64,000 nucleotides of DNA from an uncultured Collinsella sp. (GTDB lineage Bacteria > Actinomycetota > Coriobacteriia > Coriobacteriales > Coriobacteriaceae). Position numbers and translations under genes: made by a program. Positions within the stretch are counted from its first letter, which is position 1. The number at the start of each line of letters is the position of its first letter. The stretch is from positions 8,955 through 72,954 of the forward strand of contig CAUAJB010000001.1 of NCBI GenBank assembly GCA_958429225.1. Direction: 5' to 3'. A model generated the notes under the pieces. It did not search any database. It saw only the letters and a program-made list of their open reading frames with translations, and was not told where the DNA came from. Shown in pieces: positions 22,278-62,452 of the stretch.

Positions 22278-22287
22278 TATCCCTCCC

Positions 22288-25860: not shown

Positions 25861-25888
25861 TCGAAACGCGACATATTCGTGCGCATGC

Positions 25889-36716: not shown

Positions 36717-36729
36717 GGTTTTTCCTTTC

Positions 36730-36965: not shown

Positions 36966-37174
36966 TCATTTCCTTTTATCCGATTGTCATATGCTCGTTG
37001 CCGAAACTTTTACTATGATAGTGGGCACTTGTGAACGTGTCAAAGCCAGGGCGGGCGGCATTGCGCCTCCTGCCTGCGTATTTGCGCCGATTGCCGCCGC
37101 AGGCGCCGTGTTTTGTCCGCTGCGCGAATGGCGGCGTAAACGGTTGCGATGAGAAACGGGAAGGGAAGGCTCGG

Positions 37175-37966
37175 ATGATTCATATCGTTGGCGCAGGCTC
37201 GGGCGCCGCCGACCTTATCACGCTGCGCGGGGCGCGCCTTCTGCGCGCGGCCGACGTGGTCGTTTGGGCGGGGAGCCTTGTGAACCCCGAGCTGCTCGCC
37301 GAGTGCAAGGAATCCTGCGTCGTCTACGACAGCGCGCACATGACCTTGGAGGAAGTGCTCGACGTGATGTGCGCGGCGGATGCACGGGGCGAGGAAGTGG
37401 TGCGCCTGCACACGGGCGACCCGTGCCTGTACGGCGCCATCCAGGAGCAGATGGACGCACTCGACGCGCGCGGCGTGGACTACGAGGTGGTGCCCGGCGT
37501 GTCGAGCTTTTGCGGTGCCGCGGCGGCGCTTCGCCAGGAATACACGCTGCCGGGAATCAGCCAGTCGGTCGTGATCACGCGGCTTTCCGGGCGCACCCCC
37601 ATGCCCGCGGGCGAGGGCATGCGCACCATGGCGGAAAGCGGCTCGACTATGGTCATCTTCTTGAGCTCGGGTATGCTCGCCGAGCTTTCCGCCGAGCTTT
37701 TGGCCGCGGGCCGCAGCTCCGACGAGCCGGCGGCGCTCGTGTACAAGGCGACCTGGCCTGAGGAGCGCGTGGTGCGCTGCACAGTGGGCACGCTCGCCGA
37801 TGCGGGTGCGCGAGAGGGCATCGACCGCACGGCGCTCGTGGTGGTGGGCCGCGTGCTCGGAGCTCGCGGTGGGCTTGCGCACGACGGCGCGCAAGCGGAG
37901 TCGTACGAGCGCAGCAAGCTTTACGACCCTTCGTTTGCCACGGGGTATCGGAAGGCGAGCAGCTAG
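37175..37966 (+). CDS. cbiF: Cobalt-precorrin-4 C11-methyltransferase
   Basis: Start is ATG 37175 (MIHIVGAGSGAADLITLRG). It has the TP-methylase fold, with HTGDPCLYGA. Confidence 0.9.
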   Translation: MIHIVGAGSGAADLITLRGARLLRAADVVVWAGSLVNPELLAECKESCVVYDSAHMTLEEVLDVMCAADARGEEVVRLHTGDPCLYGAIQEQMDALDARGVDYEVVPGVSSFCGAAAALRQEYTLPGISQSVVITRLSGRTPMPAGEGMRTMAESGSTMVIFLSSGMLAELSAELLAAGRSSDEPAALVYKATWPEERVVRCTVGTLADAGAREGIDRTALVVVGRVLGARGGLAHDGAQAESYERSKLYDPSFATGYRKASS

Positions 37967-37967
37967 C

Positions 37968-39152: not shown

Positions 39153-39834
39153 AGGCGTGCTGTACGGGGTGGGAACGGGGCCTGGCGACCCCGAGCTGCT
39201 CACGATCAAGGCCGTCCGCACAATCGAATCGTGTCCGGTCATCGCCGCGCCGCAGACGGCGGACGGGGCCATGGTCGCGCTCGATATCGTGCGCGGCGCC
39301 GTCGACCTTACAGGCAAGACGGTGATCCCCGTGCGGTTCTCGATGACGCGCGACGCCGAGCGCCGCGCGGCCGAGCATGCCTCGCTTGTTCGCGAGCTTG
39401 TCGCGCACCTGGATGCGGCCCGCGACGTCGCGCTGCTGAACCTGGGGGACCCGAGCATCTACGCCACCTTCCAGCGCATAGCGCCCGACGTGCGCGCCCG
39501 CGGGTTCGAGGCGCGTGCCATTCCCGGCGTGCCGAGCTTCTGCGCGGTCGCCGCGGCGCTCGAGCGCGACCTCACGCCCGAGATGTCGTCGCCTCTGCAT
39601 ATCGTGCCCGGCGGCTACGACGACGTGCGCCGCGCAATCGGCTGGCCGGGGACGAAGGTGATCATGAAGGCGCGCCGTTCGCTTGCGGACACGAAGCGCA
39701 TCCTTCGCGAGGAGGGCGCCTTCGACGGTGCCGAGCTCGTAGAGGACTGTGGGCTTCCGGGCGAGCGCGTGTACCGCTCGCTCGACGATGTGCCCGATCG
39801 GGGCAGCTACTTCTCGACGATGGTGGTGCGCTAG
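39145..39834 (+). CDS. cbiL: Cobalt-precorrin-2 C20-methyltransferase
   Basis: N-terminus is LYGVGTGPGDPELLTIKAV. It overlaps cbiD by 8 nt. Confidence 0.9.
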   Translation: MSKGVLYGVGTGPGDPELLTIKAVRTIESCPVIAAPQTADGAMVALDIVRGAVDLTGKTVIPVRFSMTRDAERRAAEHASLVRELVAHLDAARDVALLNLGDPSIYATFQRIAPDVRARGFEARAIPGVPSFCAVAAALERDLTPEMSSPLHIVPGGYDDVRRAIGWPGTKVIMKARRSLADTKRILREEGAFDGAELVEDCGLPGERVYRSLDDVPDRGSYFSTMVVR

Positions 39835-40968
39835 ATGAGGGTTTCCTGCATAGCGTTCACTGAGAGGGGGTATGCGTTGGCGGAGCGCACCGCACGCGCG
39901 CTTTCCGATTGCGCGCAGACAGGTGAAGATGATCCTGGCTGGGACGTTTCCGTTTCACGCGGGTTCGGCGAGGGGAAGGCCGACTTGCGCGCATGGACGG
40001 CGCTCGCGTGGGAAGCGTCGGACGCGCTTCTGTTCGTGGGCGCGGCGGGCATCGCCGTGCGGGCGATCGCGCCGCATGTCGCCTCGAAGGCAACCGATTC
40101 CGCGGTTGTGGCGATCGACGAGGCGGGGCGCTTTGCCGTCCCGCTTTTGTCGGGGCATTTGGGCGGCGCGAACGAGCTTGCGCAAACTGTGGCACGCGCG
40201 GCAGGGGCCATCCCCGTCATCACCACGGCGACCGACGTCCGCGGCGTGTGGGCGGTGGATACGTGGGCGCGCCGTGCGGGTCTCGCCGTTTCGAATCCCG
40301 AAGCCATCAAGCGAGTGTCGGCGCGGCTGCTTTCGGGCGGGCGCGTGGCGCTCTATTCCGACATGCCGATTTCGGGACAGCCGCCTAAGGGGGTTGACAT
40401 TGCGTCAAACCGCGCTCGGGCCGATATCGTCGTGTCGCCGTTCGCTGGCGCGAATGCAGGTGCGTCCGTTCGCGCGGCGGAGACAACGGGCGAGGTCGTG
40501 CCCGCCGGTGAGACGGGGAAGCCGGCGGGCGTGCGGGCGCAGGCGCCTGCGCCCGAGCCGCTTTGCCTTGTCGTGCCCTGCATCGTTGCGGGCATAGGGT
40601 GCCGTCGCGGTGCGTGCGCCGAAGCGATTGGGGAGGCGTTTCTTCTCGCGTGCGGGCAGGCGGGCATCTCGCCTTCGGCCGTGCGCGAGGCGGCGACGAT
40701 CGACGTGAAGGCGCACGAGGAGGGTCTGCTCGCCTTCTGCCGCGCGCGCAATATCCCGCTTGCGACGTATTCCGCAGAGGAGTTGTCGCAGGTCGAAGGC
40801 AGCGTTTCGCCATCTGATTTCGTGCGCGCGACGGTGGGGGTCGACAACGTGTGCGAGCGCGCGGCGCTCGCGGACGGGGGCAAACTTATCTTCCCAAAGC
40901 TCGCTCACGGCGGCGTGACCGTCGCGTTTTCCAAGGTAACTATCGAACTTTCGTTTAAGGAGCGGTGA
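39835..40968 (+). CDS. cbiG: Cobalt-precorrin-5A hydrolase
   Basis: CbiG N-, middle and C-terminal regions are recognisable (VAGIGCRRG ... IDVKAHEEGL). Confidence 0.85.
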   Translation: MRVSCIAFTERGYALAERTARALSDCAQTGEDDPGWDVSVSRGFGEGKADLRAWTALAWEASDALLFVGAAGIAVRAIAPHVASKATDSAVVAIDEAGRFAVPLLSGHLGGANELAQTVARAAGAIPVITTATDVRGVWAVDTWARRAGLAVSNPEAIKRVSARLLSGGRVALYSDMPISGQPPKGVDIASNRARADIVVSPFAGANAGASVRAAETTGEVVPAGETGKPAGVRAQAPAPEPLCLVVPCIVAGIGCRRGACAEAIGEAFLLACGQAGISPSAVREAATIDVKAHEEGLLAFCRARNIPLATYSAEELSQVEGSVSPSDFVRATVGVDNVCERAALADGGKLIFPKLAHGGVTVAFSKVTIELSFKER

Positions 40969-41711
40969 TGGGAAAGCTCTTCGTGGTGGGGATCGGCCCG
41001 GGCGGCCCCGACGGCATGACGATTGCGGCTCGGCGCGCGCTCGAGGCGGCCGACACCGTTGTGGGGTACACGAAATACGTGGAGCTCGCGCTCGCCGCCG
41101 TGCCCGACGTGGCGCATCTCGCGACGCCGATGATGCACGAGGTCGAACGGTGCCGCCTGGCGCTTTCGCGTGCGCAGAGCGGAGAAGCCGTGGCGCTCGT
41201 GTGCAGCGGTGACGCGGGCGTGTACGGCATGGCGAGCCCCGTGCTGGAGCTTGCGGAGGACTACCCCGATGTAGACGTGGAAGTTATCGCCGGGGCCACC
41301 GCGGCTCAAAGCGGGTCGGCGGTGCTCGGCGCCCCGCTTGCCCACGACTTCGCGGTCGTGTCGCTCTCCGACTTGCTCACGCCGTGGGAGGTCATCGAGC
41401 GCAGGCTCGCCGCCGTGGCGATCGCCGACTTCTGCATCTGTTTGTACAACCCGCGCAGCAGAAAGCGCGCCGACAGGCTCTCGCGCGCGGCGAAGATTAT
41501 GCTCGAATGGAAGGCCCCCGACACGCTCTGCGGTTGGGTACGCAACATCGGGCGCGAGGGGCAGCAGTCGGGCATGTGCAGGCTCTCCGAGCTGGGGGAG
41601 CTCGATGCAGACATGTTCACCACCGTGTTCGTCGGCAACGCGGGCACGAAGCGCGTAGGCGGCCGTATGGTCACGCCGCGCGGGTATCGGGAGATTCCAT
41701 GCGAAAGGTAA
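40968..41711 (+). CDS. cbiH: Cobalt-precorrin-3B C17-methyltransferase
   Basis: ATG 40968 lies 5 nt after RBS AAGGAG (a GTG at 40965 is also possible). N-terminus is VVGIGPGGPDGMTIAARRALEAADTVVGYTKY. Confidence 0.9.
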   Translation: MGKLFVVGIGPGGPDGMTIAARRALEAADTVVGYTKYVELALAAVPDVAHLATPMMHEVERCRLALSRAQSGEAVALVCSGDAGVYGMASPVLELAEDYPDVDVEVIAGATAAQSGSAVLGAPLAHDFAVVSLSDLLTPWEVIERRLAAVAIADFCICLYNPRSRKRADRLSRAAKIMLEWKAPDTLCGWVRNIGREGQQSGMCRLSELGELDADMFTTVFVGNAGTKRVGGRMVTPRGYREIPCER

Positions 41712-43048
41712 CGATTATCGGGGCGGGGCCCGGAAACGCCGACTTGCTCTCGCGCGCGGCGCTCGACGCGATCGACATCGCCGACGTGGTCATCGGCGCT
41801 CATCGCGCGCTTGTTGGCATCGACGTGCCGCCCGACGTGGTGAGATGCGAGCTCGTGAAGACGGCGGACATCGTCGCCGCGCTCACCGATGCGGCGTCGT
41901 GGCAGCGCGCCGTGGTCGTGATGACGGGCGATGTGGGGCTGTTCAGCGGCGCGCGCCGCCTGGCGGAGGCAATCTCCGGCGACGCGCAGGTGGACGTGCG
42001 CATCATTCCCGGCATAAGCTCAGCGTCGTATCTCGCCGCGTGCCTCGCGCGTCCATGGCAGGATTGGCGCTTCGCGAGCGCTCACGGCGTGGCGTGCGAC
42101 ATCGTGGCCGAGGCCGAGCGCGCAGGTGAGCTCTTCCTCGTCACGTCGGGCGGGGAAGACCCCTCGCGGCTTTCGGGCGAGCTTGTGCAGGCGGGCTTCG
42201 GGGACGCGCGCGTGACGGTGGCCGAGCGCCTGTCGTACCCCGACGAGCGTATCACCTGCGCGACCGCAAGTGAAATCGCAGGTCAGACGTTCGACGACTT
42301 GAACGTGATGCTTATCGATTTCGCAGGTGGCGCCGGGTCGCCTGCGGGCTCTAGCGCAGCCTCCGAGGCGCCGGCCGGCGCGTCTGCATCCGCGGCGGCT
42401 TCTTCCGCGGCGGACCCTGCGGGCGCATCCCGCGCCGCGAGCTCCCGCTGGCCGTACGCTTCCTCGGGCATTCCCGACGAGCTCTTCATCCGCGGCGAAG
42501 TTCCCATGACCAAGCAGGAGGTGCGCGCCGTCGCGCTCGCGAAGCTGCGCCTTACCGCGACCGACACCGTGTGGGACGTCGGCGCCGGCACGGGGAGCGT
42601 GTCGATCGAGGCGGCGCTCGTCGCGCGAGCGGGCTCGGTATGGGCGGTGGAGCGCAACGCGGCCGGCGTGCGGCTCATCCGAGAGAACGCGGATGCATTC
42701 GGGTGCGGCAACGTGCATGCGGTCCCCGGTGTCGCCCCCGATGCGCTCGCGAAACTGCCCGTCCCCGACGCCGTGTTCGTCGGCGGGAGTGCGTGCGAGC
42801 TTCCCTCCATCGTGGAGGCGGCGCTCGAGAAGAACTCGCAGGTTCGCCTGTGCGTGCCATGCGTCACCGTTGAGACGCTCACCGAGGCGTGCGCGCTCCT
42901 CTCGGGTTCGCGCTTTAAGGGGTTCGAGGCGTGCCAGGTGTCGGCCGCCCGCGCCGAGGCTGTAGGCTCGCACCATCTTATGAAGGCGCAAAACCCCGTG
43001 TTCCTCGTCAGCGCGCGTGGTGCAGGTGGGGAAGGCGGCGCCCGGTGA
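41699..43048 (+). CDS. cbiET: Fused cobalt-precorrin-7 C5-methyltransferase / cobalt-precorrin-6B C15-methyltransferase (decarboxylating)
   Basis: The CbiE part (IIGAGPGNADLLSRAAL) and the CbiT SAM-methyltransferase part (VWDVGAGTGSVSIEAA) are joined by an Ala/Ser/Gly linker. Confidence 0.85.
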   Translation: MRKVTIIGAGPGNADLLSRAALDAIDIADVVIGAHRALVGIDVPPDVVRCELVKTADIVAALTDAASWQRAVVVMTGDVGLFSGARRLAEAISGDAQVDVRIIPGISSASYLAACLARPWQDWRFASAHGVACDIVAEAERAGELFLVTSGGEDPSRLSGELVQAGFGDARVTVAERLSYPDERITCATASEIAGQTFDDLNVMLIDFAGGAGSPAGSSAASEAPAGASASAAASSAADPAGASRAASSRWPYASSGIPDELFIRGEVPMTKQEVRAVALAKLRLTATDTVWDVGAGTGSVSIEAALVARAGSVWAVERNAAGVRLIRENADAFGCGNVHAVPGVAPDALAKLPVPDAVFVGGSACELPSIVEAALEKNSQVRLCVPCVTVETLTEACALLSGSRFKGFEACQVSAARAEAVGSHHLMKAQNPVFLVSARGAGGEGGAR

Positions 43049-44427
43049 GCACGTCCATTCCGCGCTTCATGGTCGCTGCGCCCTCGAGCGGGAGCGGCAA
43101 GACGGTCGTAACGTGCGCGCTCCTGCGCGCGCTCGCGCGCCGCGGCCTTGCATGCGCGGCCTTCAAATGCGGCCCCGACTACATTGACCCGCTCTTTCAT
43201 CGCCGCGTCGTGGGTACGCGCTCGGGCAACTTAGACGGCTTCTTCACCGACGCTCCGACGCTGCGCGCCCTGCTCGCACGCGGCGCCGCGGGCGCGGATG
43301 TCGCGGTGCTCGAGGGGGTCATGGGCTTCTACGACGGCATGGCGCCCGGCGTGGCCGACGCGAGCAGCTACCAGGTTGCGCGCGACACGGAAACGCCGGT
43401 CGTTTTAGTGGTGAACGGGCGCGGGGCGTCTTTATCGCTCGCCGCCGTAATCCGCGGCATCGCCGAGTTCCTGCCTTGTGCGAACGTGCGCGGCGTCGTG
43501 CTGAACAAGACGGGCGCCGCTGCCTGCGCCTACGCGGCGCCTGCGATCGAGAAGCACACGGGCGTCGCGGTTTTGGGTAATATCCCCGCCGACGAGGCGT
43601 TCTCGCTCGAAAGCCGGCATCTGGGGCTTGTGACCGCCGACGAGGTCAAGCAGCTCTCCGCGCGCATCGGCAAGATGGCCGAGCTGGTGGAAAAGAGCGT
43701 CGACGTCGATCGCTTGCTCGAAATAGCGGCGACGGCACCCGATATCCGCGAGGAACCTTACCGGTTGGAGCCGATCGCGGGAGCGCGGCCCATCGTCGCC
43801 GTCGCGCGTGACGAGGCGTTCTCGTTCTACTACGAGGAGAACCTGCGCGCGCTCGAGGACCTGGGTTGCGAGCTGGCCTTTTTCAGCCCCCTGTGTGATA
43901 GCGAGTTGCCCCGGGGGACAAGCGCCCTCTATCTGGGAGGCGGCTACCCGGAGCTCCATGCGCGGCAGCTCTCCGAGAACGCGCCGATGCGCGAGGCGGT
44001 GCGGCGCGCGGTGGAATCCGGCATGCCGACGGTCGCCGAATGCGGTGGGTTTCTGTACCTGCAGCGCGAAATCGCCGATAGCGAGGGGCGGCGCTGGCCT
44101 GTTGCGGGCGCCCTTGAGGGAGCAAGCGAGAACGGGGGAAGGCTGTCCCATTTCGGGTACGTGGAGCTCACTTCCCAACGCGACGGGCTCTACGGGCCGC
44201 GCGGCACACGCATCCGCGCGCACGAGTTCCACTACTGGCAGTCCACCTGCCCGGGCGGCGACTTCTGGGCGCAGAAGCCCCGGCGCGACAAGGGCTGGCC
44301 GTGCATGACGACCACCCCGTCCCTGGTTGCGGGCTTCCCGCATGTGTACTATCCTGCGAACCCCGACGTTGCGCGCGCGTTCGCGTCTGCCACAGCGTCG
44401 TTCGCAGAGAGGAGACGGCATGGCTGA
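43045..44427 (+). CDS. cbiA: Cobyrinate a,c-diamide synthase
   Basis: The GTG start overlaps the cbiET stop. SGSGKTVVTCALL and FKCGPDYIDP are present, with a GATase-like C-terminal half. Confidence 0.9.
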   Translation: MSTSIPRFMVAAPSSGSGKTVVTCALLRALARRGLACAAFKCGPDYIDPLFHRRVVGTRSGNLDGFFTDAPTLRALLARGAAGADVAVLEGVMGFYDGMAPGVADASSYQVARDTETPVVLVVNGRGASLSLAAVIRGIAEFLPCANVRGVVLNKTGAAACAYAAPAIEKHTGVAVLGNIPADEAFSLESRHLGLVTADEVKQLSARIGKMAELVEKSVDVDRLLEIAATAPDIREEPYRLEPIAGARPIVAVARDEAFSFYYEENLRALEDLGCELAFFSPLCDSELPRGTSALYLGGGYPELHARQLSENAPMREAVRRAVESGMPTVAECGGFLYLQREIADSEGRRWPVAGALEGASENGGRLSHFGYVELTSQRDGLYGPRGTRIRAHEFHYWQSTCPGGDFWAQKPRRDKGWPCMTTTPSLVAGFPHVYYPANPDVARAFASATASFAERRRHG

Positions 44428-45562
44428 AGCAACCGAAACCGCGCTTGCCTGCATCCGTGAGGAAGTCGAGCGCGCGTTCTCGTCGGCGCCGGGTGCCGTG
44501 CTCGAAGCCGCGCTCTCCCGGATCGCGCCCGCAGACGAGTGCGCCCGCGCCGCCGCGTACGCCGCGTGGGACTCTATCGCGCACCCCTTGGGGGGATTGG
44601 GCGACTTTGAAGACGCCGTCGCGTGTATCGCCGCAGCTCAGGGGAGCGCCGAGGTGGCCGAGTTTCCCCGTGCACTCGCGGTATTCTTCTCCGACAACGG
44701 GGTCGTTGCCGAAGGCGTGTCGCAAAGCGGGCAAGACGTGACGCGAGCCGTCGCGCGCAACATGTGCGAGGGGGCCACGAGCGCCTGCCGCATGGCGGCG
44801 TTCGCGGGTGCCGAGGTCGTGCCCGTCGACGTGGGTATGGCCCGGGGCATAGAAGACACGCGCATGGTGCGCGCGAACGTGCGGCGGGGGAGCGGCAACA
44901 TCGCGCACGGCTCCGCTATGTCTCGCGATGGGGCCGTTCGCGCGATCGAGGTCGGAATTGCCGTCGCGTGCGGACTTGCCCGCGCCGGCGTGCGCCTTTT
45001 CGCCGCGGGCGAGATGGGCATCGGCAACACGACCACCTCGGCGGCGGTGGCCGCAGTGCTCATCCGGGCGGACGCGCGGAGCCTCGTCGGGCGCGGCGCG
45101 GGGCTCTCGGACGCCTCGCTCGCGCGCAAGCGCGACGTGGTCGAGCGCGCTATCGACGCGAACTCGCCCGATCCCGCCGACCCGATCGACGTGCTCTCGA
45201 AGGTCGGCGGCTTCGACATCGCGGCGATGTGCGGCTTCTACCTGGGGGCCGCGGCCTCGAAGGCGCCGGCGCTCCTCGACGGGGTCATATCATGCACGGC
45301 GGCCCTGTGCGCGGCGCGCCTGTGCCCTAACGCCTTGGGCTACCTCGTGGGCACCCACGTATCAAGCGAACCGGCAAGCCAGGAGCTCCTTCGCGAGCTC
45401 GGCATAAAGGCACCCCTCGACGCAGGCATGCACTTGGGCGAGGGCGCGGGCGCCATGGCGTATCTGCCCCTTCTGGATTCGGCGCTGCGCGTGTACCGGG
45501 ATGGGAAGACGTTCACGGCGACTGGCATGGCTGCTTACGAGCATTTCGAGGCCGGGAAATGA
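44420..45562 (+). CDS. cobT: Nicotinate-nucleotide--dimethylbenzimidazole phosphoribosyltransferase
   Basis: Motifs GEMGIGNTTTSAAV and LGEGAGA are present. Confidence 0.9.
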   Translation: MAEATETALACIREEVERAFSSAPGAVLEAALSRIAPADECARAAAYAAWDSIAHPLGGLGDFEDAVACIAAAQGSAEVAEFPRALAVFFSDNGVVAEGVSQSGQDVTRAVARNMCEGATSACRMAAFAGAEVVPVDVGMARGIEDTRMVRANVRRGSGNIAHGSAMSRDGAVRAIEVGIAVACGLARAGVRLFAAGEMGIGNTTTSAAVAAVLIRADARSLVGRGAGLSDASLARKRDVVERAIDANSPDPADPIDVLSKVGGFDIAAMCGFYLGAAASKAPALLDGVISCTAALCAARLCPNALGYLVGTHVSSEPASQELLRELGIKAPLDAGMHLGEGAGAMAYLPLLDSALRVYRDGKTFTATGMAAYEHFEAGK

Positions 45563-46107
45563 CGGTGACGCTCGTCATCGGCGCCGCCGCGAGCGGCAAG
45601 AGCGCCTACGCCGAGTCCCTGTGCCTTGGGCACGACGGCCCCCGCGTGTACCTGGCAACGATGGAGCCCTTCGGGGAAGAGGGCGCCCGCCGCATCGCGC
45701 GCCATCGGGCGCTGCGCGAGGGCAAGGGGTTTTCCACCCTCGAGCGCACGCGTGACGTGGGCGCCGCAGTGCCCGGGCTTCCGCGCGGCTGCACGCTTCT
45801 TTTGGAGGACGTGGGCAACCTGGTTGCGAACGAGCTCTTCGCGGAAGGCGGCTTGTCCCCACTTGACCCCGACGCTGCGGCGCGCGAGGTGCTCGGAGGC
45901 ATCGAACGGCTCGCTCAGGCCGCTGAGTATACGGTGGTGGTCACCGTCGACGTGTTCGCCGATGGGATGCGCTACGATGAGGGGACCGAGGCATGGAGGC
46001 GCGCGCTCGCGCGCGTGAACGCGGGCGTGGCGGCGTTGGCCGACCGCGCAGTCGAAGTGGTATGCGGGATTCCCGTGTGGATGAAAGGCGAAGGACCTAC
46101 AAGGTGA
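45559..46107 (+). CDS. cobU: Adenosylcobinamide kinase / adenosylcobinamide-phosphate guanylyltransferase
   Basis: P-loop GAAASGKS is present, along with a His-containing region RRIARHRALR. Confidence 0.85.
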   Translation: MTVTLVIGAAASGKSAYAESLCLGHDGPRVYLATMEPFGEEGARRIARHRALREGKGFSTLERTRDVGAAVPGLPRGCTLLLEDVGNLVANELFAEGGLSPLDPDAAAREVLGGIERLAQAAEYTVVVTVDVFADGMRYDEGTEAWRRALARVNAGVAALADRAVEVVCGIPVWMKGEGPTR

Positions 46108-46871
46108 AGATAGCAGAGGCAATCGGCGCGGCGTTCGGAACGTTCTCGCGCATCCCCGTCCCGAAATCGGCCTGGACCGATTTCGGATCAACCCATGCGC
46201 TTGCCGCGTTTCCCCTGGTGGGCGTTGCGGAAGGCTTCCTCATGACGGCGTGGGGGCACGTGGCGAACCTGCTCGGCGTGCCCGCGACCATCGTCGCGGC
46301 CGTGCTCGTGGCGTTGCCTGTGGCGGTGACGGGAGGCATTCACCTAGACGGGCTCTGCGACACCTCCGATGCGCTTGCAAGTTGGGCCCCGCGCGAGCGA
46401 AAGCTCGAGATCATGCACGACCCGCGGGCGGGCGCCTTTGGGGTCATTGGTGTTGTTGTGTACCTTATTCTGCAGTTTTCCCTTTTCACCGCGCTGCCGC
46501 TTACGGCGGGGGTGTTCCTCGCGCTTCTGTGCTCGCTCGTGTTCTCCCGCGCGCTTTCGGGGCTTGCCGTTGAATGCTGGCCTGCCGCGCGGGCTGACGG
46601 CATGGCCGCGGGGCTCTCGCCTGCGAAGAAGCGCGCGGCGATCGTCGTGCCGCTTTGCGCTTTCGCTGCGGCTTCGGCTGCAGGGATGGTCGCGTGCGCT
46701 CAGGCCGTCGGCGCCCTTATGGCGGTGGCGGGGCTTTTGGTGCTCGCGTGGTACCGCCATGTTGCCCTGTCCCGCTTCGGTGGGGTGACGGGGGATTTGG
46801 CCGGATGGTTTCTGCAATGGGCCGAGCTCGCGATGCTTGCCATGCTAGTGGCGGGGGGCATGCTCCTATGA
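46104..46871 (+). CDS. cobS: Adenosylcobinamide-GDP ribazoletransferase (cobalamin synthase)
   Basis: The GTG start overlaps the cobU stop. It is a polytopic membrane protein carrying FSRIPVP and GGIHLDGLCDTSDA. Confidence 0.85.
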   Translation: MKIAEAIGAAFGTFSRIPVPKSAWTDFGSTHALAAFPLVGVAEGFLMTAWGHVANLLGVPATIVAAVLVALPVAVTGGIHLDGLCDTSDALASWAPRERKLEIMHDPRAGAFGVIGVVVYLILQFSLFTALPLTAGVFLALLCSLVFSRALSGLAVECWPAARADGMAAGLSPAKKRAAIVVPLCAFAAASAAGMVACAQAVGALMAVAGLLVLAWYRHVALSRFGGVTGDLAGWFLQWAELAMLAMLVAGGMLL

Positions 46872-47869
46872 TGCTCGTGGTAGGTGGCGCACATTCGGGG
46901 AAGAGGACCTTCGTGCGCGAAAAGCTCGGGTTCGCGGCGGACGATTTCGTCGACGCGGCGCAGCTTGCGGAGGGCGGCGTGCCCGCTGCTTTTGTCGGCC
47001 GCGTCGCATACCGTGCTGAGGAACTCGTACGCGCGCTCGACGCTGACCGGGCGCTCGAGCGGCTGATCGGCTTCGACGCAGTGATTCTGCCCTTGGTCGG
47101 CTCGGGGGTCGTCCCCATGCGTGCGGAAGACGCCCAATGGCGCGAGCGCGCGGGGCGCCTGGGATGCGCGCTCGCTGCGCGCGCCGACGTCGTCGTGCGC
47201 ATGACGTGCGGGATTCCCCAGGTCATCAAAGGAAACCTTGCCGATGCGCCTCGAGGGACGCAGGGCGCGGGCGCGCCTTTGGAAGTCGTCTTCGTGCGCC
47301 ATGGTGCCACGGCGGGCACGGAAGACCATCGCTACAGCGGGGCGGGCACCGACGAACCCCTGTCGTGCGCTGGCGAGCGCGCTTTGCGCGACCTCGCGTG
47401 CGATCGTGACGCGTTCCGTGTTTTCACGAGCGGCATGGCCCGCACCGACCAGACGGCACGCATCCTTTTCCCGAATGCGGAGCTTATGGCATGCCCCGGT
47501 CTGCGCGAGATGGATTTCGGTGACTTCGAGGGGCGAAGCGCCGCCGAGCTTAAAGAGGATGCGCGCTACCGCGCCTGGGTAGACTCCTGGTGCGAGACGT
47601 GCTGCCCGCATGGCGAGGGCAAGAGCGATTTCACCCGCCGCGTCGTCGCGGCGTTTCGGGAGGCGTGCGAATCGGAGCGCGCCCAGGGGAGTGGGCGCGC
47701 CGTCTTCGTCGTTCACGCGGGTACCGTGAAAGCGCTGCTTTCCGAGCTTGCTGTCCCGAAAATGGAATACTTCGACGTGCATACCGAGCCGGGCGGCGCA
47801 TGGGCCGCCACCTGGGATGGGCGCTGCCTTCGCGACGTTCGCCCCGCTTCGGGGGGCGATGCCCGGTGA
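46868..47869 (+). CDS. cobC: Fusion of a truncated CobU-like P-loop domain with a histidine-phosphatase (alpha-ribazole phosphatase CobC-like) domain
   Basis: The N-terminal part has GGAHSGKR and a CobU-like C-terminal segment GSGVVPM...RMTCGIPQVIKG. The C-terminal part has the RHG motif (FVRHGAT) and GMARTDQTA. Confidence 0.7.
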   Translation: MMLVVGGAHSGKRTFVREKLGFAADDFVDAAQLAEGGVPAAFVGRVAYRAEELVRALDADRALERLIGFDAVILPLVGSGVVPMRAEDAQWRERAGRLGCALAARADVVVRMTCGIPQVIKGNLADAPRGTQGAGAPLEVVFVRHGATAGTEDHRYSGAGTDEPLSCAGERALRDLACDRDAFRVFTSGMARTDQTARILFPNAELMACPGLREMDFGDFEGRSAAELKEDARYRAWVDSWCETCCPHGEGKSDFTRRVVAAFREACESERAQGSGRAVFVVHAGTVKALLSELAVPKMEYFDVHTEPGGAWAATWDGRCLRDVRPASGGDAR

Positions 47870-48843
47870 TGACGATTCTTGCCGTCGCCGCCGGGTTCGC
47901 GGCCGACCTTGCCTTCGGCGACCCGCGCTGGCTTCCCCATCCCGTTGTCGCCATGGGGCGCGCGATCACGTGGGCCGAAGGCCGCCTGCGGGGCTCATTC
48001 CCGCAAACGTCCGCGGGCACGCGCGCCGCAGGGCTCGTGCTTGCCGTGGCGCTTCCGCTTGCGTGTGGGCTTTTGACCTTGGGAATCCTGCATCTTTGCG
48101 GCATGGTTCACCCCGGCTTGCGCTTCGTGGCCGAGGCATGGGCGAGCTATCAGATTCTCGCGGCATGCGAGCTGCGCCGCCAGAGCCTGGCCGTGGCCCG
48201 CGCGTTCTCGAAGGGCGGCCTTGTCGCGGCTCGCGAAGCCGTCGGGCTCATCGTGGGACGCGACACGTCTGTTCTCGACGAGCAGGGCGTTGCGCGCGCC
48301 GCCGTGGAAACGGTGGCGGAGAACGCGAGCGACGGCGTCATCGCGCCGCTTTTCTACCTTATGATCGGGGGTGCGCCCTTGGGCATGGCGTACAAGGCGG
48401 TGAACACGCTCGACAGCATGGTGGGCTACAAAAACGAGCGCTACATCGACTTCGGCTGCGCCTCGGCGCGCCTCGACGATGCGGTGAACTGGATTCCCTC
48501 GCGCTTATCGGCCCTGCTCATGATCGCCGTGTGCCCGATTGTCGGGCTCGATGCTCGCGGGGCGGCGCGCATCTGGCGCCGCGACAGGCGTCGCCATGCG
48601 AGCCCCAACTCGGCGCAGACCGAGTCAGCGTGTGCGGGCGCGCTCGGGCTGCGCCTGGCAGGACCCGCGGTGTATTTCGGCAAGCTCGTTGAGAAACCGA
48701 CGATAGGCGACGCGTCCCGCGAAATCGAGTGGGGCGACATCGCCCGGGCGACTAGGCTCATGCTCGCCGCGTCCGTATGCGCGCTCGTCGTCTTCGGTGC
48801 CGCACGCGCGGCGGTCGTGCTCGCCGTGGGGGCGATGGTATGA
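47869..48843 (+). CDS. cbiB: Adenosylcobinamide-phosphate synthase
   Basis: The ATG overlaps the upstream TGA by 1 nt. Motifs FGDPRWLPHPVVAMG and NASDGVIAPLF are present. Confidence 0.9.
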   Translation: MTILAVAAGFAADLAFGDPRWLPHPVVAMGRAITWAEGRLRGSFPQTSAGTRAAGLVLAVALPLACGLLTLGILHLCGMVHPGLRFVAEAWASYQILAACELRRQSLAVARAFSKGGLVAAREAVGLIVGRDTSVLDEQGVARAAVETVAENASDGVIAPLFYLMIGGAPLGMAYKAVNTLDSMVGYKNERYIDFGCASARLDDAVNWIPSRLSALLMIAVCPIVGLDARGAARIWRRDRRRHASPNSAQTESACAGALGLRLAGPAVYFGKLVEKPTIGDASREIEWGDIARATRLMLAASVCALVVFGAARAAVVLAVGAMV

Positions 48844-50048
48844 GGGAAGACCACGCCGCGTCCCGGGCTGCCGGGGGAATCCTGCGCGCCCGTGCGCATG
48901 GGGGTAGCACGCAATCGCTCGGCATCGCTTGCGAAGGGGGCGCCTCCGACCTCATTGACTTCTCGGTGAACGTGAATCCGGCAGGCCCCTCGCCGCGCGC
49001 CGTTGCCGCAGCTTGCAAGGCGCTTTCTCGAATCGACGCCTACCCCGATAGGGAAAGTCTCGCCCTCGTTCGCGCCCTAGCGCGTGCCCAGGGCATTCCC
49101 GAAGATACTATCGTCTGCGGCGCGGGCGCGTCCGACATCATCTGGCGGCTCGCCGCGGCGGTGCGCCCGAAACGCATCGTCGTGTGCGCGCCGACGTTCT
49201 CTGAATATGCGGAGGCGGCATCGTACTACGGCGCATGCGTGCAGGAGTTCCCGCTCTCCGAAGCGGACGACTTCGACGTGCCCGCCTCCTTCGCCCGCGC
49301 GATCGAGGGGCCGGGAGACGTGGCGTATATCTGCAATCCGAACAACCCGACGGGGCGCCTCGTCGACCCCCGCGTGATCGATGCCGCGGCATGCCGCTGC
49401 GAGCAGGTGGGCGCGCTGCTCGTCGTGGACGAGTGCTTCCTCGGATTTGCGCCCGACGCCCGCGAAAGGAGTGTGGCCGCACGCGCCGCGTGTTCGCGCC
49501 ATGTGGCCGTGCTCTCCGCGTTCACCAAGCTCTACGGAATGGCAGGGTTGCGGTTGGGTTATCTGATCAGCGGAAACGCCCGACTCATCGAGGGGATTCG
49601 CCGGGCGGGGCAGGCGTGGCCCGTCTCCTCGGTCGCTGAGGCCGCGGGCATCGCCGCCCTTGAAGACGTCGAATACGTCTCGCGCACGCGCGATGTATTG
49701 GCGGGCGAGCGAGCGTGGCTTTCCCACGAGCTCTCCTCGCTCGGGCTTTCCGTCGTGCCGTCGGATGCGAACTTCCTTTTAGTCCGCACGCCGGCGAAAG
49801 ACATCCCCGAGCGCCTGTATAAACAGGGGGTTTTGGTCCGCTCGTGCGACTCGTTTTCAGTACTGTCCCGTTTCTGGTGCCGCGTCGCGGTGCGCACGCG
49901 CAAGGAGAACGCCCAGCTTGCGATGGCGTTCAGCCGCGCGCTTCGGGCGGAAGGCGCATCGGGCGAAGGCGAACCCGACGAACGGGGCGGCGCTATGGCG
50001 GGCGCGGATGGCCGAGGCTCGGCGAAGGAGGTCGATACCCGTGGGTAG
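48840..50048 (+). CDS. cobD: L-threonine-O-3-phosphate decarboxylase (class I/II aminotransferase fold)
   Basis: Motifs HGG, NPNNPTG and SFTKLYGMAGLRLGY are present. A Gly/Glu-rich C-terminal tail follows. Confidence 0.8.
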   Translation: MREDHAASRAAGGILRARAHGGSTQSLGIACEGGASDLIDFSVNVNPAGPSPRAVAAACKALSRIDAYPDRESLALVRALARAQGIPEDTIVCGAGASDIIWRLAAAVRPKRIVVCAPTFSEYAEAASYYGACVQEFPLSEADDFDVPASFARAIEGPGDVAYICNPNNPTGRLVDPRVIDAAACRCEQVGALLVVDECFLGFAPDARERSVAARAACSRHVAVLSAFTKLYGMAGLRLGYLISGNARLIEGIRRAGQAWPVSSVAEAAGIAALEDVEYVSRTRDVLAGERAWLSHELSSLGLSVVPSDANFLLVRTPAKDIPERLYKQGVLVRSCDSFSVLSRFWCRVAVRTRKENAQLAMAFSRALRAEGASGEGEPDERGGAMAGADGRGSAKEVDTRG

Positions 50049-51540
50049 GGCGAAGCCCATCATGATCCAGGGCACCATGTCGAACGCGGGGAAGAGCCTG
50101 CTTGCGGCGGGGCTGTGCCGTGTGCTTTCGCAGGACGGCCTGCGCGTGGCTCCCTTCAAGAGCCAGAACATGGCGCTCAACAGCGGTGTCACGGCCGATG
50201 GGCTCGAGATGGGGCGCGCCCAGATCATGCAGGCCGAGGCGTGCGGCATCGCGCCCGACGTGCGCATGAACCCCATCCTGCTCAAGCCCGAAAGCGACCA
50301 CCGAAGCCAGCTCATCGTGGCCGGCAAGGCGCAGGGAGCCTTCGCTGCGAGGGACTACTTCGCGCGAAAGAAGGCGCTCATGCCGCAGATTTTGGGGGCG
50401 TTCGATTCGCTCGCGGAGGAAAACGACGTCATCGTCATCGAGGGCGCCGGCAGCCCCGTCGAAATCAACCTTGCCGAAAACGACATCGTCAACATGGGGC
50501 TCGCGCGCGCCGTGTCCTCCCCCGTGCTACTCGCGGGCGACATCGACCCAGGCGGGGTGTTTGCCCAGCTCTACGGCACGGTCGCGCTCTTTGCACCCGA
50601 GGACCGCGCGCTTTTGCGGGGGCTTGTGGTAAATAAGTTCCGCGGCGATGCGGAAATCCTGCGCCCGGGTTTGGCCCCGCTCGAGAATATGTGCGGGGTT
50701 CCCGTCGTGGGGGTCGTGCCGTATCTTACGCTCGACCTGGACGACGAGGACTCGCTTGCACCGCGCCTATCTGCCCGCGAGGCGCGCGGCGTCATCGACG
50801 TCGCCGTCGTGCGCCTTCCGCATCTGTCGAACTTCACCGACTTCGACCCGCTTTCGCGCGTGCCCGGCGTGGGCGTGCGCTATGTTTCCTCGACGACCGA
50901 TCTGGGCCGACCCGACCTGGTGGTGCTCCCAGGCTCGAAGACCACACTCGACGACGCGCGCTGGCTTGCGGCTAGCGGCATCGGAGCCTGTGTACGCGCG
51001 CTTTCGGGCGCGGGCACGCCGGTGCTCGGCATATGCGGAGGCTACCAGCTTTTGGGAGACGAGCTTTCCGACCCGCACGGCAGGGAAGGCGCTGGCACCG
51101 CGCGCGGGCTCGGGCTCATCCCTGCAAGTACGGTGTTCAAGGAGGAAAAGCGCCTCGCCCAGTCGGAGCTTCGCATCACGGGCGCCCAAGGCGCGTTCTC
51201 GGTGTGGAACGGCATGACGGCTCGCGGGTACGAGATTCACGACGGCGAAACGACCGTCTCCTGCGCCCCTGCGGGCACGATTGGCGGCAAACCAGAAGGC
51301 GCGGCCTGCGGAAACGTGTTCGGAACTTATCTCCACGGCCTGTTCGACGAACCGGGGGTGGCGCTCGCCCTCGCGCGCTCGCTTGCGCGCATGCGCGGCC
51401 TGCCCGAAAGCCTCGTGGGTGCTGCGGGCGCGGCGTCCGCGGCCGATCACCGTGCGCGCGAGTTCGACCGCCTGGCCGACGGCGTGCGCGGGGCGCTCGA
51501 CATGGAGTATGTCTACCGCATTATCGAGGAGGGCGTATGA
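50041..51540 (+). CDS. cobQ: Cobyric acid synthase
   Basis: MIQGTMSNAGKSLLAAGLCR is present, with a GATase C-terminal domain (GICGGYQLLG). The start is GTG 50041 or ATG 50062. Confidence 0.9.
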   Translation: MGRAKPIMIQGTMSNAGKSLLAAGLCRVLSQDGLRVAPFKSQNMALNSGVTADGLEMGRAQIMQAEACGIAPDVRMNPILLKPESDHRSQLIVAGKAQGAFAARDYFARKKALMPQILGAFDSLAEENDVIVIEGAGSPVEINLAENDIVNMGLARAVSSPVLLAGDIDPGGVFAQLYGTVALFAPEDRALLRGLVVNKFRGDAEILRPGLAPLENMCGVPVVGVVPYLTLDLDDEDSLAPRLSAREARGVIDVAVVRLPHLSNFTDFDPLSRVPGVGVRYVSSTTDLGRPDLVVLPGSKTTLDDARWLAASGIGACVRALSGAGTPVLGICGGYQLLGDELSDPHGREGAGTARGLGLIPASTVFKEEKRLAQSELRITGAQGAFSVWNGMTARGYEIHDGETTVSCAPAGTIGGKPEGAACGNVFGTYLHGLFDEPGVALALARSLARMRGLPESLVGAAGAASAADHRAREFDRLADGVRGALDMEYVYRIIEEGV

Positions 51541-52052
51541 TCCACGTGTATCATGGCGACGGCAAAGGCAAGACCACGGCGGCGATGGGCCTCGCCCTTC
51601 GCATGCTCGCCGCAGGCCGCCGCGTCGTCGTCGCGCAGTTCCTGAAAGACGGCGAAAGCGGGGAGGCGCGCCTGCTCGCCGAGCATTTTGGCGTGCCCGT
51701 GTTCGCGGGGAAGGTGTCGGACAAGTTTACTTGGTCAATGACGTCGGAAGAACTTGCCGCGACGTGCGAGCTGCACGATGGGAACCTCGCTTCCGCGCTA
51801 GCCGAGCTCGAGGGTGCTCAGGAGGGGCTGCTCGTGCTCGACGAGGCGCTCGACGCGCTTTCGAAGGGGCTTGTCGACGAGGCGCTCGTGGACCGCGCGC
51901 TCGATATGTCCGCGCGCGGCGTCGAAGTAGCGCTCACCGGGCGCGCGCCTTCCCGCAAGATCGTGGAGAAGGCCGACTACATAACCGAGATGCGGTGCGA
52001 GAAACACCCCTATGCTCAGGGGATATGTGCAAGGGAAGGAGTGGAGTACTAG
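51537..52052 (+). CDS. cobO: Cob(I)yrinic acid a,c-diamide adenosyltransferase
   Basis: The motif GDGKGKTTAAMGLALRMLAAGRRVVVAQFLK is present. Confidence 0.9.
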   Translation: MIHVYHGDGKGKTTAAMGLALRMLAAGRRVVVAQFLKDGESGEARLLAEHFGVPVFAGKVSDKFTWSMTSEELAATCELHDGNLASALAELEGAQEGLLVLDEALDALSKGLVDEALVDRALDMSARGVEVALTGRAPSRKIVEKADYITEMRCEKHPYAQGICAREGVEY

Positions 52053-53464: not shown

Positions 53465-53493
53465 GCGCTCGCCGCGCCTAGGGCCCTTCAATC

Positions 53494-53560
53494 AGTTGCG
53501 GTGAAATAGTGTCTGTTTTTGCTGCTAGATAGCATATTCGGTTCCTAATTCACCGCAACT
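53494..53560. repeat. Palindromic repeat element, family C, copy 2 (degenerate)
   Basis: Arms AGTTGCGGTGAAATAG / CTAATTCACCGCAACT have 1 mismatch. The left arm and following bases match copy 1 (AGTTGCGGTGAAATAG.G.CTGTTT). Confidence 0.7.
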
Positions 53561-53573
53561 TTTTGGTGGTGAC

Positions 53574-59009: not shown

Positions 59010-60617
59010 TTATCCGCACACACCGCATTTTGCACAGGCCGAAAGTGCGGCCGGAGCCTGCGCGATGCCGCCCTTTGCCGTCTCACGCAGCGTGGCCGGC
59101 AACGCGTGGCCCACCGAGAGCATGACATGTGCCATCTGGTCAAACGGCACCAGGCTCTTAATGCCGGCGAGGGCAAGTTGTGCCGAGCTAAAGGCCGCAG
59201 CCACGCCGATGGCGTTACGGTTTTGGCAGGGCACCTCCACGAGGCCGCCTACAGGATCGCAGACCAGGCCCAGTAGGTTGCTCAGCGCGATGGAACTGGC
59301 GTCGAGCGCCTGCCCGGGCGTGCCGCCGAGCATCTGCACCAGCGCGGCGGCTGCCATGGCGGCGGCGCTTCCGACTTCGGCTTGGCAGCCGCCCTCGGCG
59401 CCGGCAACGCAGGCGCTTGTGGTGAGGTTGAGGCCGATGGCGGCTGCGCAGTAGAGCGCGTCCATGACCTGTTCGTCGTCGAGCTGCAGGTGGTCGGCGA
59501 GCGCCAGCACGCAGCCGGGCACGACACCGGCGGAGCCTGCCGTGGGGGCGGCGACGATCACACCCATCGTGGCGGAGCGCTCGAGCACGGCCATCGCGCG
59601 GGCCACGGCGTCGGTTTGAACGGTGCCCATCAGGCTCGTGCTCAAATCGTTGCGGCCGGTGGCATCGACGAGTTTGGCCTCGCCGCCGATAAGCCCGCCG
59701 AGCGATCGCTGCGGATTGCCGATGGGGGCCGTGGTCTCCTCCCGCATGACGTCGAGCACGCGGCGCATGGCGGCGACGGCGTGGGTCTCGCCGGTCAGAC
59801 GCGCCTCTCGAACGGCCATGACGGCGCCGATATTCAGGCCGAGCTCGGCACATGCATCGAGCAGCTGCTCGCCGTCGTCGAAGATCTCCTTTGCCGAGAC
59901 GCCGGGGGAGAGCGACGAGGCAGAACCGGGGAGCTCGATAAAGGTCGCGTAATCGACATTGTCGAGCTTGCGTAGCATGGGGATAACGGTGTCGTCGGGC
60001 GCGCCGTCGGTCTCAAAGACGGAATAAGCCTGGCCGCCCACTTCGGTTCGGTAGGTGCGGCAGAAGGCGATGTTCACGTGGGCGTAGGCGAGCAGGTTGG
60101 TGAGCGCGGCGAGCACGCCGGGAACGTCCTGGTGCGCCACGAAGAGCGTGGAATACATGCCCGAGATGTCGACGCCGACGCCATTGATGCGGCTGATGCG
60201 CATCTTGCCGCCGCCCAGGCTCTCACCGCGGACCTGTGCCGTGGCGCCCGTGTCGTCGACCATGTCGATGTCGACGGTATTGGGGTGGATGGAGGCGTCG
60301 TCGCCCTTGATGTCAAAGTGATATTCGAGGCCCTGCTCGCGTGCGAGGTCGAAGGCCTGCTTGATGTTCTCGTCATCGGTGTCGAGGCCCAGGATTCCCG
60401 CGACGAGCGCACGATCGGTGCCGTGGCCGCGGTAGGTGTGGGCGAAGGAGTTCCACAGGCCAAAGGTGACCTTGGTGATGCGGCCTTCTAGCAGGCTGGC
60501 GGCAACCTGGGCGCACCGCAGGGCGCCGGCGGTGTGTGATGAGCTGGGGCCGACCATGACGGGGCCCAAGATTTCGAATGCCGAGGTCGTAGCTAGTGTT
60601 TGCGGCTTGCCTGCCAT
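59010..60617 (-). CDS. sdaA: L-serine ammonia-lyase, iron-sulfur dependent, single-chain (beta+alpha fused)
   Basis: N-terminus is ILGPVMVGPSSSHTAGALR. An ACT-like segment and an alpha domain with conserved Cys residues follow, with a Cys-rich C-terminal tail. RBS GAAGGAG lies at 60624-60630. Confidence 0.9.
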   Translation of the reverse strand: MAGKPQTLATTSAFEILGPVMVGPSSSHTAGALRCAQVAASLLEGRITKVTFGLWNSFAHTYRGHGTDRALVAGILGLDTDDENIKQAFDLAREQGLEYHFDIKGDDASIHPNTVDIDMVDDTGATAQVRGESLGGGKMRISRINGVGVDISGMYSTLFVAHQDVPGVLAALTNLLAYAHVNIAFCRTYRTEVGGQAYSVFETDGAPDDTVIPMLRKLDNVDYATFIELPGSASSLSPGVSAKEIFDDGEQLLDACAELGLNIGAVMAVREARLTGETHAVAAMRRVLDVMREETTAPIGNPQRSLGGLIGGEAKLVDATGRNDLSTSLMGTVQTDAVARAMAVLERSATMGVIVAAPTAGSAGVVPGCVLALADHLQLDDEQVMDALYCAAAIGLNLTTSACVAGAEGGCQAEVGSAAAMAAAALVQMLGGTPGQALDASSIALSNLLGLVCDPVGGLVEVPCQNRNAIGVAAAFSSAQLALAGIKSLVPFDQMAHVMLSVGHALPATLRETAKGGIAQAPAALSACAKCGVCG

Positions 60618-60640
60618 GGGTGCTCCTTCTCTATCCCGTC

Positions 60641-60761
60641 GTTCCGAGGGCTTTGGTATTTGGTCGCCTGCTCTACAGTCCTGGCTCGCACGGAGGCCAC
60701 ATTAAGTGGCCTCCGGCTCGTGCGGAACTCGCGATCGACCAAATACCAAAGCCCTCGGAAC
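60641..60761 (-). repeat. Structured repeat element, family A/B, copy 2 (26-bp perfect inverted arms + 69-nt conserved core, inverted relative to copy 1)
   Basis: Arms 60641-60666 and 60736-60761 are perfectly complementary. The reverse complement of core 60667-60735 matches 22506-22573. Confidence 0.9.
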
Positions 60762-60854
60762 TTAGGATACATGGTAGAGGCGCTCATGCTGCAAAATCCA
60801 TCAGCTGGAGACCTATTCTGTGCTCCATGTCGACTCATCTTCACCACTGGATTA

Positions 60855-60889
60855 ATAAAAAAGAGGTACCGGTTGGGGCCGGTACCTCT
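60855..60889 (-). terminator. Rho-independent terminator of metK
   Basis: AGAGGTACCGG/CCGGTACCTCT forms an 11-bp stem. On the minus strand it is followed by TTTTTTATT. Confidence 0.85.
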
Positions 60890-60930: not shown

Positions 60931-62211
<1,281 letters not shown>

Positions 62212-62312: not shown

Positions 62313-62452
62313 CCGCACCTACACATTGGGGACAGACTTAAATGACCGGTCGGGTACTCACTGGGGACAGGCTTAAACGAACAGCCTTACCTAAGTGCCG
62401 ACAGGTTGCCCAAAGAATGGTCATTTTAGTCTGTCCCCAATGAGTAGGTCGG
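62313..62452. repeat. Inverted-repeat element, family D (MITE-like)
   Basis: 24-nt arms CATTGGGGACAGACTTAAATGACC (62324-62347) and GGTCATTTTAGTCTGTCCCCAATG (62419-62442) have 1 mismatch and flank a 71-nt interior. Imperfect pairing extends about 11 nt outward on each side. Confidence 0.7.

Follow-up and report, generated by a model that had tools for sequence, protein, structure and literature searches.

In Escherichia coli and other Enterobacteria, repetitive extragenic palindromes and bacterial interspersed mosaic elements (REP/BIME) are found as intergenic palindromes within transcription units, often after stop codons or between convergent genes. The REP unit measures 20-40 nt and is conserved in sequence between copies, and the elements form stable transcript hairpins whose effects are generic. 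The Correia elements of Neisseria (CREE / NEMIS) span 100-155 bp, have a core enclosed by 26-bp inverted ends and are co-transcribed with their neighbours; the end hairpin is an RNase III substrate, the ends are conserved, the target duplication is TA and copies number hundreds per genome. Among palindromic repeats, those of Rickettsia (Rickettsia palindromic elements, RPE) can sit in frame inside protein-coding genes, and in the attC sites of integrons conserved outer R/L boxes enclose a variable centre, the folded bottom strand being the one that recombines. Here we describe a low-copy, apparently undescribed family of palindromic intergenic repeats that is spread over the class Coriobacteriia. 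It is represented by two intact copies, one upstream of sdaA and one upstream of ptsH, and by a decayed third copy in a 64,000-nucleotide stretch of DNA from an uncultured Collinsella sp. (GenBank assembly GCA_958429225.1, contig CAUAJB010000001.1, positions 8,955 to 72,954 of the forward strand; the whole stretch is referred to below as the window).

Among the known kinds, REP/BIME, Correia elements and RPE come closest. Like REP/BIME, the Coriobacteriia elements are intergenic and palindromic and often stand just after stop codons; unlike REP/BIME, they have paired arms that vary from site to site, conservation is found instead in the centre, which is unpaired or weakly paired, and the copy number is about 10 times lower. 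They also differ from REP/REPIN-RAYT systems in that the arms are not conserved, and no RAYT-like gene was seen near paired copies (whole genomes were not searched for RAYT). Correia elements are the closest match to an idea raised in a preliminary description of this DNA, namely that the duplex, if transcribed, could be a substrate of RNase III, but in the Coriobacteriia family the inverted ends are not conserved between copies and no target duplication was seen. As with RPE, one copy lies in frame with a predicted open reading frame (ORF), that of an ABC ATPase, in both Collinsella and Eggerthellaceae, whereas only this one of about 22 sites is inside an ORF. Relative to attC the layout is reversed, with the centre conserved and the outer arms variable. 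What distinguishes the family is this inverse design, a conserved centre with free, self-correcting arms, conserved across a bacterial class.

Structure of the elements

The element upstream of sdaA (copy 2) occupies 60641-60761 on the minus strand and consists of 26-nt arms around a 69-nt core. In core orientation, the 3′ arm is the one on the sdaA side (60641-60666, + strand sequence GTTCCGAGGGCTTTGGTATTTGGTCG) and the 5′ arm, its inverted repeat, is the one on the metK side (60736-60761); the two are 100% complementary over the 26 nt. The conserved asymmetric core (60667-60735), found by nhmmer at E = 4e-19, reads ATCGCGAGTTCCGCACGAGCC-hairpin-GTGCGAGCCAGGACTGTAGAGCAGG, where the apical hairpin at 60692-60714 has a 9-bp stem (GGAGGCCAC / GTGGCCTCC) and a 5-nt loop. 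The element upstream of ptsH (copy 1) lies on the plus strand at 22464-22615. Its arms, 42 nt each (22464-22505 and 22574-22615), are likewise 100% complementary, and its core of 68 nt (22506-22573) is recovered by the profile at E = 1.3e-22. The two cores are mutually reverse-complementary, at 88% over 52 nt, and a 31-base gapped core pattern has three matches in the window against 0.00 expected from 100 shuffles. Folded as single strands, copy 1 reaches −134.2 kcal/mol (z −15.1) and copy 2 −89.6 kcal/mol (z −11.5), values equalled by no shuffle. Our re-analysis reproduced all of the coordinates that the preliminary description had given for these two copies, and a profile search of the window revealed no further divergent copies beyond the three.

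The core is an imperfect hairpin in which the 9-bp apical stem lies between two invariant blocks, (N)AGTTCCGCAC and AGGACTG, both constant from Collinsella to Gordonibacter. The apical stem covaries: five of its nine pairs change on both sides (37 cells), and the observed value was reached in 0 of 500 shuffles. The apical loop is TTAAT in Collinsella and 3-4 nt long in copy 3 and in Eggerthellaceae. The mid-core sequence is of at least three types, A (GAGCC / GTGCGAGC), B (GCAAAG / GTCTTGCGC) and C (GAACAG / GTCGTGAGC). By sequence reading, each of them can form a helix of 4-5 bp, the register of which differs by type. The whole element is a single long imperfect hairpin with perfect outer arms.

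Distribution of the family

By scanning GTDB species-representative genomes with a core pattern that represents type A only, we recovered at least 119 loci, which together with the window hold at least 132 copies. Among the matches listed, nearly all are from Collinsella, the others coming from Paratractidigestivibacter (L118), Gordonibacter pamelaeae (L105) and metagenome-assembled genomes (MAGs) of Eggerthellaceae (L012, L099); when these listed matches are grouped by flanking DNA, they fall into 17 clusters, corresponding to about 22-25 chromosomal sites. The elements are 105-150 bp long, with arms of 10-42 bp and a core of about 52-68 nt (69 nt in copy 2). The core had 0 matches in viral contigs. 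A search of the whole window against Rfam 15 at the gathering threshold returned two tRNAs only, and at E up to 10 the element matched only snaR-A, by chance (23 bits against a threshold of 98 bits), and no Collinsella motif. In the literature on inverted repeats, invertons, palindromic repeats and miniature inverted-repeat transposable elements (MITEs) of Collinsella and Coriobacteriia, we found no description of the element family.

Twelve copies are present on NZ_OY725717.1, a 900-kb C. aerofaciens replicon from a plasmid collection, and in the 250 kb of it that were inspected the pair at pnp/RNase J represents the only copies. This replicon (L220-L225) is labelled 'plasmid 6' of C. aerofaciens TSDC17.2-1.1; with recA, ftsK, rho and genes for ribosomal proteins and tRNA synthetases, it is plainly a piece of chromosome and not a plasmid. 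A contig filed under Methanobrevibacter smithii (L035, CAVHBE010000073.1) contains the Collinsella fruA-ptsH spacer with a perfect element with 42-nt arms, and is probably a binning contaminant.

Arm complementarity

The unique arm pairs form 27 families, between which arm identity averages 35% (0.35) as against a core similarity of 0.92. Over the inner 18 arm positions, 95.9% are paired within an element, compared with 34.7% when left and right arms of different families are set against each other, and each arm position shows three or four Watson-Crick pair types. Mismatches make up 3.4% of 3401 arm pairs, and since those of G-T type and those of A-C type are equally frequent (32 each), there is no strand bias. 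Where orthologous copies share the same arm boundaries, as many as 7 of 31 positions vary between them, and all of the differences are mirrored in the other arm, including changes from A-T to T-A. Over all sites, we counted 77 compensated arm changes, 51 of them of transversion type, and 56 distinct unpaired states, in a count in which some site clusters merge paralogues. The arms stay complementary without constraint on their sequence.

These patterns point to a copying process at the level of DNA, both because selection for stability cannot police every pair of a 42-bp stem and because stepwise compensation of the RNA type would favour transitions via G-U intermediates. A change in one arm would be copied into the other, either by template switching during replication or by arm-to-arm conversion. 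Template switching makes quasipalindromes perfect, and homogenises and expands their arms (PMC7202029; PMC13100816). Quasipalindrome correction, as in the Ripley model and the work of the Lovett laboratory, would explain the perfect arms, the mirrored multi-base and transversion changes, the variable arm length and the occasional inversion of the spacer. This correction is a mechanism of mutation and not a family of elements, and explains neither the conservation of the core nor the placement of the elements.

Exchange between copies

Core types A, B and C are all found at one site with the same arms, and at the pnp and pcrA sites the core type switches while the arms are unchanged. At ptsH, a core of type A between 42-nt arms is found in the window and in some strains; others, with an identical HPr, have in the same place a type B core with shorter and different arms. 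Similarly, two sdaA alleles, A (that of the window) and B, both occur among strains with identical MetK. They have the outer 10 nt and the arm boundaries in common; 8 of 13 mid-arm positions distinguish them, as does the core variant. In a third sdaA haplotype, allele A has behind it what remains of allele B's right arm, while at the sdaA site of L200 allele B outer arms enclose a core and inner arms of groES type. Cores, with or without inner arms, are exchanged between copies, and the replacement is thus centred on the tip of the palindrome and reaches outward to varying distances.

Such exchange would proceed by ectopic gene conversion, perhaps following breakage at the hairpin tip, and would keep the cores near-identical. 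On this account, that cores of one genus are nearly identical does not in itself demonstrate purifying selection. That the core blocks are conserved in three families of the class does still suggest selection.

Many contigs terminate at an element, and in some the core links arms that belong to different sites (L045, L108, L130, L168, L172 and L179), which may reflect real rearrangements or assembly errors. In L130 (QSRV01000001.1), downstream of metK, the left arm is that of sdaA allele B, whereas the right arm, together with a DUF711 gene on the opposite strand, comes from another site, owing either to a chromosomal inversion through the core or to misassembly.

Genomic placement and orientation

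To call genes around the elements, we used a codon-position G+C filter that had been calibrated with known genes from the window; names were assigned by Pfam. Two classes of site emerged. At about 14 sites (class i), the 3′ side of the core strand lies 7-46 nt past the stop codon of a gene on the opposite strand, so that the core is antisense. The genes in question encode PNPase, a peptidase of family S58, a GT2 glycosyltransferase, ValRS, PcrA, mannose-6-phosphate isomerase (manA), a sulfatase-family protein, peptide deformylase (def), a pyridoxal phosphate (PLP) enzyme, the FecCD permease (copy 3 and L012) and a few other proteins. At about eight sites (class ii), sdaA and ptsH included, the core is sense and sits behind a canonical terminator, ahead of the next gene. 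The distance to the next start is 23 nt at sdaA, about 137-138 nt at ptsH, 205 nt at rpsL, 167 nt at groES, about 370 nt at cstA, 483 nt at the BFN-domain gene downstream of gyrA and 32 nt at the dCMP deaminase gene of Gordonibacter. RNase J and murB are further listed neighbours. Where two copies share one spacer they are always divergent, as at the S58/GT2 site (eight genomes) and at the pnp/RNase J site. Given that such paired copies lie only 150-270 nt apart, we ruled out that orientation is set by the direction of replication; the copies in the window (+, +, −) fit no single scheme with local gene orientation.

We also considered whether the elements are intrinsic (Rho-independent) terminators. 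They lack a U-run, and the terminators of metK and fruA are separate features. That the arms derive from pre-existing terminator stems was likewise rejected, there being no flanking T-run.

The elements occupy stable orthologous positions that border transcription units. At sdaA, the element is sense in every one of the 68 metagenomic loci for which upstream DNA is available, none of the 68 being empty, and 10 further loci from isolate and metagenome assemblies are all sense. Of 10 strains compared with the window at ptsH, nine keep its orientation. In the GTDB representatives, among the matches listed, 69 copies have the same orientation and one is inverted (L050, at a contig end); the latter is doubtful because a de Bruijn graph cannot orient the core at a contig end. 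In the finished genome CP024160.1 (L123), ptsH has a type B core in exactly inverted orientation, flanked by the same arms as in L121; since these arms are unchanged, the arms can mediate inversion. Taken together, orientation is fixed in about 157 of 159 comparisons, with one certain inversion (L123) and one doubtful (L050).

A relative whose SdaA is 87% identical keeps the metK-sdaA-ykuD order without the element. There, 89 nt separate metK from sdaA, made up of a terminator, T7, GGGACGAAAGACGGGAGCATCTC and the ATG, and about 95 nt of neighbouring DNA are missing as well. Given this synteny, the element is probably dispensable at sdaA. More distant relatives have other genes upstream and no element, and a BLAST search with the flanks for empty sites among the fetched loci returned diverged cases only. 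In the manA/pcrA spacer, the element adjoins one gene or the other depending on the species (L114 versus L037 and L076).

Between rpoC and rpsL, where other genomes have a single copy, L055 has (at 1037-3262) two direct copies that flank a 2.1-kb cassette encoding an extracytoplasmic function (ECF) sigma factor and a DUF4179 protein, probably an anti-sigma factor. No transposase was found between paired copies: the DNA between them in L038 and L055 encodes proteins of unknown function or the ECF sigma/anti-sigma pair.

Gene context in the window

In the window, Pfam identifies sdaA (59010-60617) and metK (60931-62211) on the minus strand, and the fructose phosphotransferase system gene fruA (20124-22205), ptsH (ORF 22696-23016, ATG 22753) and ptsI (23096-24853) on the plus strand. 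A terminator scan placed the intrinsic terminator of metK at 60852-60889 on the minus strand, with an 11-bp stem at 60889-60862 followed by a T-run. The fruA terminator (22240-22279, plus strand) was missed by the scan because of a bulge and a nested stem; it is an imperfect hairpin of about 14 pairs at 22240-22273, followed by T6, with a fold of −23.9 kcal/mol (z −4.2). The preliminary description had proposed that both loci share the order terminator, element, gene and that the core reads in the direction of the downstream gene. The order was verified at both ptsH and sdaA by the scan and, for fruA, by the fold, and so was the orientation of copies 1 and 2; the same layout recurs at rpoC-rpsL, at gyrA-BFN and upstream of cstA and of groES.

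The start region of sdaA (60615-60630, minus strand) comprises the ATG at 60617-60615 and the Shine-Dalgarno sequence GAAGGAG at 60630-60624. The arm of copy 2 ends 10 nt from the Shine-Dalgarno sequence, in agreement with the preliminary description, and 23 nt from the ATG; the reported spacing between the end of the copy 1 arm and the ptsH ATG, about 137-138 nt, holds as well. Because only 23 nt separate arm and ATG, the hairpin must lie in, or start, the sdaA leader. In C. aerofaciens, a conserved block, ACCATGTATCCT(A/T)A, immediately precedes the arm at the sdaA locus and includes a TANNNT-type hexamer, TATCCT. Were this hexamer a −10 element, transcription of sdaA would begin within the arm's first bases, and the leader would open at its 5′ end with the hairpin, 10 nt ahead of the Shine-Dalgarno sequence. 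At ptsH, the stretch between the element and the ATG is highly conserved and probably holds the promoter.

Other repeats and features were observed in the window. An unrelated second palindromic element with 32-nt arms that are 88% complementary lies at 22281-22368, between the fruA terminator and copy 1, and a 72% related copy of it is found at 53483-53569. At the ptsH locus in L121 and L123 it is absent and replaced by other sequence, and its presence is therefore polymorphic. Upstream of metK there is another inverted repeat (62317-62449), with 31-nt arms that are 94% complementary and a 71-nt spacer. Two identical tRNA genes, 99 nt apart, lie at 28700-28773 and 28799-28872, and tandem paralogous genes at 24968-26955 give rise to direct repeats that are 72-77% identical with a spacing of 1122-1131 nt. 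The G+C content is 66-69% at 36000-52000 and about 60% in the rest of the window. Near 32-36 kb the sign of the G-C skew reverses, and around 30 kb coding passes from the + to the − strand.

A decayed third copy

Copy 3, which is absent from the preliminary description, is an old, decayed member of the family on the plus strand (32358-32463). Its arms are degenerate, with 10 nt left of each (32358-32367 and 32454-32463), while its core (32380-32434) is still recognised by the profile at E = 5.5e-12. It is located 28 nt past the stop codon of the FecCD permease gene (32491-33531, minus strand), within a long ABC ATPase ORF (31174-32490, minus strand) that begins right after the permease stop. 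This ORF reads copy 3 in frame, which gives it an N-terminal extension of about 60 amino acids. About 10 Collinsella species have an element at the FecCD site, as does the Eggerthellaceae MAG L012, where the element is also in frame and the conserved blocks are 27 nt as against 30 nt apart. Copy 3 may be translated, in the manner of RPE elements, or the true start of the ABC ATPase may lie further downstream.

Discussion

Comparison of the copies leads us to favour, with moderate confidence, the view that these are palindromic intergenic repeats with a conserved core, self-correcting site-specific arms and a generic role at transcript boundaries. As very stable hairpins in the transcript, or as cruciforms in DNA, they would delimit or protect transcript ends generically, as REP/BIME or Correia elements do. 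Several observations weigh against this view. The strict rule of position and orientation, with paired copies always divergent, does not follow from it. The hairpin is not followed by a T-run in either direction, the tail at post-stop sites being only about 40% T, and promoter scans found no sigma-70-like site in or near copy 1 or copy 2. Wobble pairs in the apical stem fall mostly on the core strand (about 9 versus 2). Together with the class-wide conservation of the core, this strand bias hints at a sequence- and strand-specific partner, which a purely generic hairpin would not require. Finally, the chimeric contigs L045, L108, L130, L172 and L179 may be real rearrangements or assembly errors.

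A tentative alternative, which we regard as possible, is that the core is a strand-specific hairpin, of RNA or single-stranded DNA and not represented in current databases, that marks gene boundaries for a factor present throughout the Coriobacteriia, the arms being left free through DNA-level copying. A boundary mark of this kind would stand antisense right after stop codons, sense behind terminators and divergent when paired.

We consider it rather unlikely that the family is a structured RNA or single-stranded-DNA motif new to the databases, in which the core provides the binding or catalytic site for a Coriobacteriia-conserved factor and the arms merely close the structure; the lack of an Rfam match speaks neither way. 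The invariance of the blocks AGTTCCGCAC and AGGACTG from Collinsella to Gordonibacter is what such a motif would show, but within the genus ectopic conversion can mimic purifying selection. Covariation of the apical stem (0/500 shuffles), wobble pairs mainly on the core strand and occupation of the FecCD site in two bacterial families are all consistent with it, while perfect duplexes of 26-42 bp are atypical of functional RNAs. A rule of position and orientation does exist, yet the core occurs in both orientations with respect to transcription, about 14 sites being antisense and about eight sense.

It is doubtful that the elements are currently mobile, either as non-autonomous transposons of the MITE/REPIN type or as hairpin-loop inserters, the core being recognised by a transposase or HUH nuclease acting in trans. 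Terminal repeats are not conserved between copies, the reverse of what is found in MITEs, Correia-type elements included, and no target-site duplication was seen by eye where the arms end in about 27 representative copies. Many species have the elements at stable, orthologous sites, and among close relatives 0 of 68 sdaA loci are empty; on the other side, a related species lacks the element at sdaA, together with about 95 nt of neighbouring DNA, and the position in the manA/pcrA spacer differs between species. The L055 cassette, lying between two direct copies, and copy 3, in frame within an ORF as RPE elements can be, would both suit a mobile element; against this, there are no copies in viral contigs and no transposase lies between or beside paired copies. 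That the apical stem is conserved in structure and its flanks in sequence also fits, and the bias of wobble pairs to one strand would suit recognition as single-stranded DNA.

An inverton, in which a recombinase flips the asymmetric core between the arms and thereby causes phase variation of the neighbours, is very unlikely. The family resembles invertons in having perfect inverted repeats around an asymmetric segment, and the core is exactly inverted at ptsH in L123 and also inverted in L050, but orientation is nearly fixed in the assembly comparisons (GTDB representatives, ptsH and sdaA). Moreover, the spacer of 66-69 bp is very short for synapsis of the arms, a common recombinase site is lacking because each site has arms of its own with no shared sequence, the copies examined had no recombinase gene next to them, and the core contains no promoter-like site.

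Highly improbable is the shared cis-regulatory module of the phosphoenolpyruvate (PEP)/pyruvate node put forward in the preliminary description, with ptsHI and sdaA co-regulated via a leader duplex that serves as an RNase III site, roadblock or cruciform: both copies in the window are sense to the downstream gene behind a terminator, copy 2 is only 10 nt from the sdaA Shine-Dalgarno sequence and the same orientation is kept at 68/68 metagenomic sdaA loci, but the neighbours are unrelated (pnp, RNase J, valS, pcrA, manA, def, rpsL, groES, cstA, gyrA, murB, FecCD permease, dCMP deaminase), most sites are antisense just past a stop codon, the ptsH element is about 138 nt from the ATG with a conserved stretch, a probable promoter, in between, and a relative has metK-sdaA-ykuD without the element. 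The survey of orientation and neighbour function that had been proposed as a check did show that the sense-behind-terminator layout recurs. This layout represents the minority class beside about 14 sites that are antisense after a stop codon, and the gene functions share nothing, the neighbours at about 22 sites being unrelated housekeeping genes.

Collinsella is an abundant gut genus with little genetics, and a family of elements at the ends of its core housekeeping genes probably affects transcript ends. Genome assemblies are affected too, in that contigs break at the elements or different sites are joined through the shared core. The family provides an unusually clean natural case of a conserved centre joined to fast-changing arms that nevertheless remain perfectly complementary, with arm homogenisation and centre-out ectopic conversion of palindromes at work over long evolutionary time, and, if the core binds a specific factor, it would represent a new kind of gene-boundary element.

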